Under the pieces are notes generated by a model, which saw nothing but the letters and a program-made list of their open reading frames with translations, was not told the DNA's origin and did no database searches. Position numbers and translations under genes: made by a program. Below, piece by piece: positions 22,602 through 22,784 of a DNA stretch of 64,000 nucleotides (positions are counted from its first letter, which is position 1; each line of letters opens with the position of its first letter). Source of the stretch: Escherichia coli (GTDB lineage Bacteria > Pseudomonadota > Gammaproteobacteria > Enterobacterales > Enterobacteriaceae); NCBI RefSeq assembly GCF_003018235.1, contig NZ_CP027437.1; one strand, written 5' to 3'.

Positions 22602-22784
22602 TCATGGCAGATGTTTATTCCCATCTAAAATGGCATCAACGGGAAAATAAGTAATGTGTTTATTGTTATTCTTCTCATTTATTTTATCGCCATGGTTATT
22701 TTTTGAATCAACCGTGGCTTCCTCATGATATTTCCTGGCTAACTCTTCAGACGTAAAAGAAGCGTTTTTTCCGTTTATGTTCAT
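22602..22784 (-). CDS. Hypothetical small protein (60 aa) between chaperone and major translocator genes
   Basis: ORF MNINGKNASFTSEELARKYHEEATVDSKNNHGDKINEKNNNKHITYFPVDAILDGNKHLP in operon orientation; no recognisable family; may be non-coding spacer. Confidence 0.3.
   Translation of the reverse strand: MNINGKNASFTSEELARKYHEEATVDSKNNHGDKINEKNNNKHITYFPVDAILDGNKHLP

Follow-up and report, generated by a model that had tools for sequence, protein, structure and literature searches.

Layout of the eip island and of the eicA–eipB gap

The window, by which we mean the whole 64,000-nucleotide stretch of Escherichia coli DNA analyzed here (contig NZ_CP027437.1), carries the selC-associated eip island on its minus strand (Table 1). 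The chaperone gene eicA, whose product PGAP names a 'SycD/LcrH family type III secretion system chaperone', is followed by eipB, the gene of a major translocator with its own chaperone-binding motif, PMLAPP, at residue 62. The original prediction placed a Lys/Asn-rich open reading frame (ORF) of 60 codons, in operon orientation, in a gap of about 250 bp between these two genes, and this description is accurate: the gap measures 247 nt, the ORF begins with ATG on the minus strand, and its product, MNINGKNASFTSEELARKYHEEATVDSKNNHGDKINEKNNNKHITYFPVDAILDGNKHLP, contains 10 Asn and 7 Lys among its 60 residues.

The ORF starts 9 nt past the eicA stop codon and ends 55 nt ahead of the eipB ATG. Upstream of its start, the sole Shine-Dalgarno-like bases are the GAG within GAGTGAGTC, which overlaps the eicA stop, and this core, lying 8 nt upstream of the ATG, makes a weak ribosome-binding site. 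Escherichia albertii has a good ribosome-binding site at the aligned position (AAGGAG-N8-GTG). Of 5000 dinucleotide-preserving shuffles of the 247-nt gap, just 1.6% contain a sense ORF of 60 amino acids or more, and the open frame thus exceeds the usual chance expectation. Compared with E. coli KE55, the closest public genome, the window is identical across the ORF stretch.

Table 1. Features of the eip island in the window, with the landmarks of the eicA–eipB gap
Feature	Coordinates	Strand	Remarks
tRNA-Sec	27773..27867		minus-strand gene order then setC, yicL, nlpA, yicS, eicA
eicA	22794..23291	-	class II (SycD/LcrH/IpgC-type) TPR chaperone gene; upstream neighbor of the ORF; Pfam TPR_3, E 2e-17
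eicA–eipB gap	22547..22793		247 nt
9-nt spacer	22785..22793	-	eicA stop (TGA) to ORF ATG; read from the sequence
Orphan ORF	22602..22784	-	60 codons, stop codon included; ATG start; RefSeq hypothetical protein WP_001579254.1 and variants
First A6 run	22765..22770	-	ORF nt 15-20; frameshift site in strain E105 (L016), a single genome
Second A6 run	22699..22704	-	ORF nt 81-86; site of both common frameshift alleles, A5 and A7
Last 17 codons, ITYFPVDAILDGNKHLP	22605..22655	-	least variable part of the ORF
55-nt non-coding spacer	22547..22601	-	ahead of eipB; holds the strong eipB ribosome-binding site AAGGAGGTG (22551..22559)
eipB	20765..22546	-	major translocator (SipB/IpaB/SctE family); downstream neighbor of the ORF; T3SSipB/SseC
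eipC	19622..20752	-	
eipD	18232..19578	-	
eilA	16332..18029	-	
eaeX/air	5730..16280	+	strand opposite to the eip genes

Annotation and distribution of the ORF

The ORF stretch is found in 733 of 5426 complete E. coli genomes. Automatic annotation treats it either as a 'hypothetical protein' (WP_001579254.1, WP_000700143.1 or WP_103253760.1) or as a PGAP 'frameshifted' pseudogene; the copy in the enteroaggregative E. coli (EAEC) strain 042 is an allele of 182 nt annotated as pseudogene EC042_RS31660 (L035, NC_017626.1 4252744..4252925). Six eip genes are listed for the locus, with no mention of the small ORF (PMC11068852; PMC2808357), and six make up the original annotation of EAEC 042 (PMC2808357); only known genes of the locus are named in PMC7058095 and PMC4210603. 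The ORF is therefore already annotated automatically, yet it goes without a name or discussion in the papers that enumerate the locus (PMC11068852, PMC2808357).

The product has no match in Pfam, NCBIfam or the PDB sequences. We also searched 5.8 billion clusters by word index and scanned 1.8 billion representatives exhaustively with an HMMER profile. Apart from low-complexity noise, the only matches were copies of the E. coli type, including variants with truncations or frameshifts. In both of these large protein searches, homologues are confined to E. coli-type eip loci.

Chaperone–translocator junctions in related loci

Related type III secretion loci share the order chaperone, major translocator, minor translocator, tip protein, and differ from the eip locus in how tightly the first two genes are joined. 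The near-contiguity of ipgC and ipaB, noted in the original prediction, is borne out by a gap of 5 nt; among other distant relatives, the plasmid-borne sicA and sctE of Salmonella overlap by 8 nt and the Providencia pair lies 2 nt apart, against the 247 nt with an ORF in E. coli. The chaperones of these three pairs are only 40-43% identical to EicA. Among eleven closer loci of the Ysa/eip type, E. coli included, nine have gaps of 121-323 nt (Table 2), and the chaperones of the ten relatives share 47-69% identity with EicA. At the DNA level, the gaps of related loci show no similarity to one another.

Table 2. The chaperone–translocator gap and its small ORF in E. coli and ten relatives of the Ysa/eip type (L numbers are our locus labels; ORF coordinates are those of each locus)
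Locus	Gap (nt)	Small ORF
E. coli (window)	247	60 aa
E. albertii (L017)	263	70 aa, 6519..6731; GTG over the eicA stop behind AAGGAG; PELIKP
L025	255	no ORF over 30 aa
L026	282	no ORF over 36 aa
L021	171	no comparable ORF
Y. enterocolitica Ysa (L023)	121	no comparable ORF
L031	268	81 aa, 3504..3749; PTLKKP
L033	323	94 aa, 2998..3282
L034	216	69 aa, 2982..3191
L030	34	no small ORF
L032	32	no small ORF

Small ORFs that begin at, over or next to the chaperone stop codon are present in five of these loci (E. coli, E. albertii, L031, L033 and L034). The 70-residue ORF of E. albertii is equaled or exceeded in length in 0.6% of shuffles of its gap. Two of the ORFs resemble the beginning of a translocator. 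The ORF of L033, with local-alignment z-scores of 9-13 and a translocator N-terminus profile score of 18-22 bits, is clearly a diverged paralogue of the translocator N-terminus. The ORF of L031 scores lower (z 4.6; 11-12 bits) and is significantly similar to it. The junction in this branch thus harbors a truncated copy of the 5' end of the translocator gene, at stages of decay that vary by lineage.

The hexapeptide P/VxLxxP, by which class II chaperones bind their translocators in the groove of the TPR domain (PMC3443056), was located by a regular-expression scan at residues 52-67 in 11 of the 12 major translocators checked. It is also present at residues 47-50 of the small ORFs of E. albertii (PELIKP) and L031 (PTLKKP). 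The full-length translocator of L031 has a degenerate motif of its own (PMLANS).

Sequence constraint on the ORF

Diversity was measured over 15 alleles of the eicA–eipB region, chosen to span E. coli diversity (Table 3). On the ORF DNA, two off-frame controls give pN/pS values of 0.55 and 1.26, and variable sites are spread over the three codon positions as 14/10/13, against 6/6/29 in eicA. In this set of alleles, the ORF thus shows neither the depletion of non-synonymous changes nor the third-position bias expected of purifying selection on a protein-coding gene. Along eipB, pN/pS is 0.10-0.14 over the first 900 nt and 0.37-0.44 over the remainder; the value of 0.52 for the whole ORF is not far above the latter, and fast evolution alone is therefore no proof that function has been lost.

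Table 3. Diversity across the eicA–eipB region in 15 E. coli alleles
Segment	Nucleotide diversity	pN/pS
eicA	0.026	0.055-0.059
ORF, first 129 nt (codons 1-43)	0.080	0.61
ORF, last 54 nt (codons 44-60)	0.030	0.19
ORF, whole	0.065	0.52
55-nt spacer before eipB	0.035	n/a
eipB	0.078	0.30

Only the last 17 codons of the ORF look constrained, with a low pN/pS (0.19) at a normal pS (0.10) and just 5 variable sites. The C-terminal 15 residues, YFPVDAILDGNKHLP, are unchanged in the six protein variants of one alignment (A2), and the substitutions T45A and G55E are seen among the genome alleles. Diversity is just as low (0.029) over the first 300 nt of eipB. The ~110 nt that precede eipB may owe their lower diversity to selection on signals for eipB expression, or to nothing more than local genealogy. 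None of the 11 in-frame alleles, which are up to 14% divergent, carries a nonsense mutation, and this, like the near-invariance of the last 15-17 residues and the rarity of so long a frame in shuffles, counts against reading the ORF as a vestige.

Frame loss in E. coli

Three independent frameshift alleles interrupt the ORF, every one of them at its two A6 runs. Both common alleles affect the second run: the -1 allele (A5) is carried by 146 genomes, EAEC 042 among them, and the +1 allele (A7) by 82, with the third allele, at the first run, in a single genome. These counts are of exact allele-specific megablast matches, obtained with a 50-nt signature for the -1 allele and 95-nt queries for the other two. 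Altogether, the ORF is frameshifted in at least 229 of the 733 genomes (31%), and in 19 of 59 genomes in an independent, rank-spread sample. Because the alleles follow lineages, sporadic sequencing errors do not explain them. It was in EAEC 042 that the eip locus and its regulation by EilA were described, and the ETT2 and eip loci of this strain are regarded as intact.

The neighboring genes behave differently. Homopolymer runs of at least 6 nt (6-8 nt) number three in eicA and seven in eipB, and not one of them is shifted in the 15 alleles, all of which have an intact eicA and a full-length eipB (593 aa). Ten unshifted runs beside two shifted ones indicate that selection purges frameshifts from eicA and eipB and not from the ORF. 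One metagenomic allele (L005) combines a -1 with a -5 deletion, which together restore the frame of the ORF, and this too counts against a vestige.

Mutational attrition is widespread in ETT2 and associated E. coli loci, according to Ren et al. 2004 as cited in PMC7058095 and PMC11068852. The eip island follows this pattern in that lineage-specific frameshifts and insertions also occur in eipC and eaeX contains an in-frame stop; it departs from it in that the small ORF is what breaks here, with eicA and eipB whole in 15 of 15 alleles. Given such attrition, a decayed ORF would be nothing unusual in this island.

Relationship of the ORF to translocator N-termini

The E. coli ORF resembles the N-terminal module of the translocators IpaB, SipB, YspB and EipB in lying directly downstream of the chaperone gene, in the same orientation, and in being about as long as the opening 60-95 residues of a translocator. 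It differs from the module in having no significant similarity to it, even with one frameshift allowed, and no P/VxLxxP motif by the regular-expression scan. A profile HMM of translocator N-termini gives the ORF 0.8-2.8 bits, and its local alignments to these N-termini fall within the shuffle range with one low-complexity exception. That exception, a match to the translocator of L025 (L025_B; z 3.7), reflects low complexity in Asn and Lys and vanishes under composition-based statistics. A profile scan tolerant of a single frameshift, calibrated against shuffles, is likewise negative for the E. coli ORF (p 0.47), the whole E. coli gap (p 0.29) and the E. albertii gap (p 0.94). The idea that the gap is a relic of a translocator 5' end finds no support in E. 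coli and E. albertii, where tblastn, blastn, profile HMM and frameshift-tolerant scans are all negative; only L033 and L031 score positive in such scans.

Comparison with the ORFs of E. albertii, L031, L033 and L034 shows nothing beyond chance after multiple-test correction. The E. coli and E. albertii ORFs are 17% identical in a global alignment, and their local score lies under the shuffle mean. An alignment by eye of the first ~22 residues of the two (MN.IN.K.A.S..S.E.L.R..KY) may hint at a relationship. We also considered a likeness of 'VDAILDG' to the translocator 'ADxxMLLK' box, and a 'K(E/Q)LI(T/K)P' string that the spacer carries in its +1 frame, roughly as far along as would be expected. 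Both are post-hoc motifs, and they were set aside because the objective profile test gave them no support.

EicA of E. coli and its E. albertii counterpart share 69% identity, the two EipB proteins only 27%. At such a rate of change, loss of similarity is expected in an unconstrained stretch of 60 residues, so the link of the E. coli ORF to a translocator is something we infer and not a result. The ORF joins the series of translocator-derived stubs by its position and start site, not by its sequence. AlphaFold2 models of an EicA-linker-ORF fusion give the ORF a pLDDT of ~30-35, against >90 for EicA, and leave the peptide unstructured and undocked. The motif-bearing E. albertii ORF, modeled as a control, is likewise not confidently docked (pLDDT 28-56), and since this peptide with PELIKP failed to dock, the fusion test cannot speak to EicA binding.

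RNA structure and regulatory signals in the gap

The gap had also been proposed to be a structured leader, and this proposal finds no support: fold z-scores lie between -0.35 and -1.0, no Rfam family matches and no pairs covary. Neither the 281-nt fold (z -0.35) nor the 134-nt fold (z -0.99) has a better energy than shuffles. In the minimum-energy fold, UUAAUUACACCC pairs with GGAGGUGAAUUA, masking the eipB ribosome-binding site; this predicted hairpin, at -7.9 kcal/mol, is not significant (z -0.95). In the fold of the alignment, 0 of 29 predicted pairs covary, and a divergent allele (L009) breaks three of them without compensation. The Rfam scan of the gap found nothing better than E=1, and the sense strand of the gap holds no sigma-70-like promoter or terminator. 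A promoter-like site in antisense orientation, ATGGCA-16-TAAAAT (9/12), lies on the plus strand at 22604..22631, against the 3' end of the ORF. The count of promoter-like sites in the region is within shuffle expectation.

Origin and status of the ORF

We read the ORF as a vestigial, dispensable open frame, lying in a spacer inherited within the Ysa/eip branch, and not as a working gene, with a probability of roughly 0.55. Its evolution is almost unrestrained and about one-third of strains have lost the frame, which makes a leftover the most likely explanation. The spacer would go back to the ancestor shared by the Ysa/eip group of SPI-1-like type III secretion loci, a group in which an additional stretch of coding DNA would separate the chaperone gene from the major-translocator gene. 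Two relatives demonstrably have there a copy of the translocator's first ~90 codons, and decay would since have advanced to differing extents among lineages. What is left in E. coli would be an open frame that begins where the ancestral gene began, beside the chaperone stop, and that has no recognizable parent. The ORF is probably co-transcribed with eicA and eipBCD and ribosomes that finish eicA may re-initiate on it and make small amounts of a product that the cell can presumably dispense with; eipB would be translated independently from its own strong ribosome-binding site. Among the origins put forward in the original prediction, the remnant of a decayed gene fits best, on the grounds of relaxed constraint, loss of the frame in at least 31% of genomes and the stubs or ORF-less spacers of related loci, against which stands that no parent gene was found. 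The expectation that a non-functional frame would lack conservation is partly borne out: one-third of E. coli genomes have lost the frame, and E. albertii has an ORF at the same position with no detectable similarity to it.

A doubtful but still credible alternative is that the ORF encodes a small protein that functions in the ETT2/eip system, evolves fast, is specific to its lineage and was simply lost where the frame is shifted. Such a protein could be an early secretion substrate, or a regulator acting through the conserved C-terminal 15 residues, perhaps by binding EicA. That 31% of genomes, EAEC 042 included, lack the frame and keep eicA and eipB intact argues against it, as do the missing third-position bias, the weak ribosome-binding site, the lack of P/VxLxxP and the lack of similarity beyond chance to the ORFs of E. 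albertii, L031 or L033; the AlphaFold2 fusion, which gave no confident structure or docking, points the same way only as far as its failed E. albertii control permits. In its favor are an open frame that is improbable by chance (1.6% of shuffles), a start directly after the chaperone gene that makes re-initiation possible, an invariant C-terminus with synonymous-biased substitutions, the frame-restoring double deletion in L005 and the P/VxLxxP motifs that the E. albertii and L031 counterparts carry near the translocator position. Secreted type III proteins are, moreover, often fast-evolving, and the 3' half of eipB itself has a pN/pS of 0.37-0.44. The small secreted or regulatory protein of the original prediction is thus left with hints, namely the invariant C-terminal 15 residues and a frame open in about two-thirds of strains, set against the missing domain, fold and chaperone-binding motif and the weak ribosome-binding site.

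Two further explanations make no use of a protein. It is unlikely that the 247-nt interval serves, irrespective of any coding capacity, as a cis-regulatory element of eipBCD (an internal promoter, a regulator-binding site or an mRNA leader controlling eipB translation). In favor of such an element, diversity over the ~110 nt ahead of eipB is ~2.5-fold lower than over the opening 129 nt of the ORF (0.030-0.035 vs 0.080), but this low diversity may only reflect mosaic ancestry, since the first 300 nt of eipB are just as uniform (0.029). Similarly, eipB has a strong ribosome-binding site of its own, which the minimum-energy fold covers, and yet the folding is no better than that of shuffles, 0 of 29 pairs covary, Rfam offers no match and the gap has no sigma-70-like promoter or terminator on its sense strand. 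Spacers of similar length recur in related loci, even in those with no ORF; however, these gaps share no DNA similarity. We consider it more unlikely still that the spacer never coded and that the ORF is a chance frame in AT-rich intergenic DNA, called by gene finders for its length alone. The recurrence of small ORFs at or next to the chaperone stop in five loci, the derivation of the L033 and L031 ORFs from coding sequence, and the rarity of such frames in shuffles (1.6% here, and 0.6% for the 70-residue ORF in the sequence-unrelated gap of E. albertii) all oppose an origin by chance, despite a substitution pattern blind to codon position, a pairwise pN/pS that resembles one off-frame control (0.52 vs 0.55), the orphan status of the ORF, and the sister loci L025 and L026, whose similar gaps contain no ORF longer than 36 aa.

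If the ORF is a vestige, as we favor, it is not to be counted as a seventh eip gene, and it is no gauge of whether the eip locus of a strain is 'intact' or 'degraded'. Of some interest to specialists in type III secretion, the Ysa/eip branch has a non-compact junction that repeatedly holds a truncated translocator module for secretion and chaperone binding, in varying states of decay. Any stub copy that is expressed would naturally compete for the chaperone groove. It is improbable, in our estimate, that the small ORFs of the five loci form one fast-evolving class of 'mini-translocator' peptides, derived from the translocator N-terminus and still acting as decoys or early substrates. Were this so, such decoys might tune the amount of free EicA or SycB available for transcriptional co-activation, the in-frame E. 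coli form would act through YFPVDAILDGNKHLP, and the frameshifted lineages would be natural knock-outs.

Additional observations on the island and related records

Within the eip operon, eipC is frameshifted in strain ES5 (L003 5099..6251) and cut off by an IS1 insertion in strain AR_0015 (L013 4549..5211); these lesions are further lineage-specific attrition. Two deep allele classes of eipB exist in E. coli, with 98-99% and 85-86% nucleotide identity to the window (L001-L016). The divergence and the raised pN/pS (0.37-0.44) are concentrated in the 3' half of the gene, and the adjoining eicA is 96-99.8% identical. This pattern suggests mosaic recombination or diversifying pressure on the translocator.

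The eaeX/air gene, which encodes a giant inverse-autotransporter adhesin, has an in-frame stop (…VIKDG*EADGS…) at 13014..13016 of the window and is thereby split into two ORFs in one frame, 2428 and 1074 codons long; the air gene of EAEC 042 is a single CDS of 11.4 kb. Two database records also deserve comment. A contig assigned to a 'Collinsella sp.' metagenome-assembled genome (JAIJJM010000039.1, L006) carries the E. coli eip locus, with an EicA 99% identical to that of the window, and almost certainly comes from mis-binned E. coli DNA; a scan of genome contigs with EicA matched this contig alone and was of no help in finding orthologues. The top 'plasmid' match for EicA, NZ_CP141089.1, is a chromosome-sized E. 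coli record (4.94 Mb) filed among plasmids.
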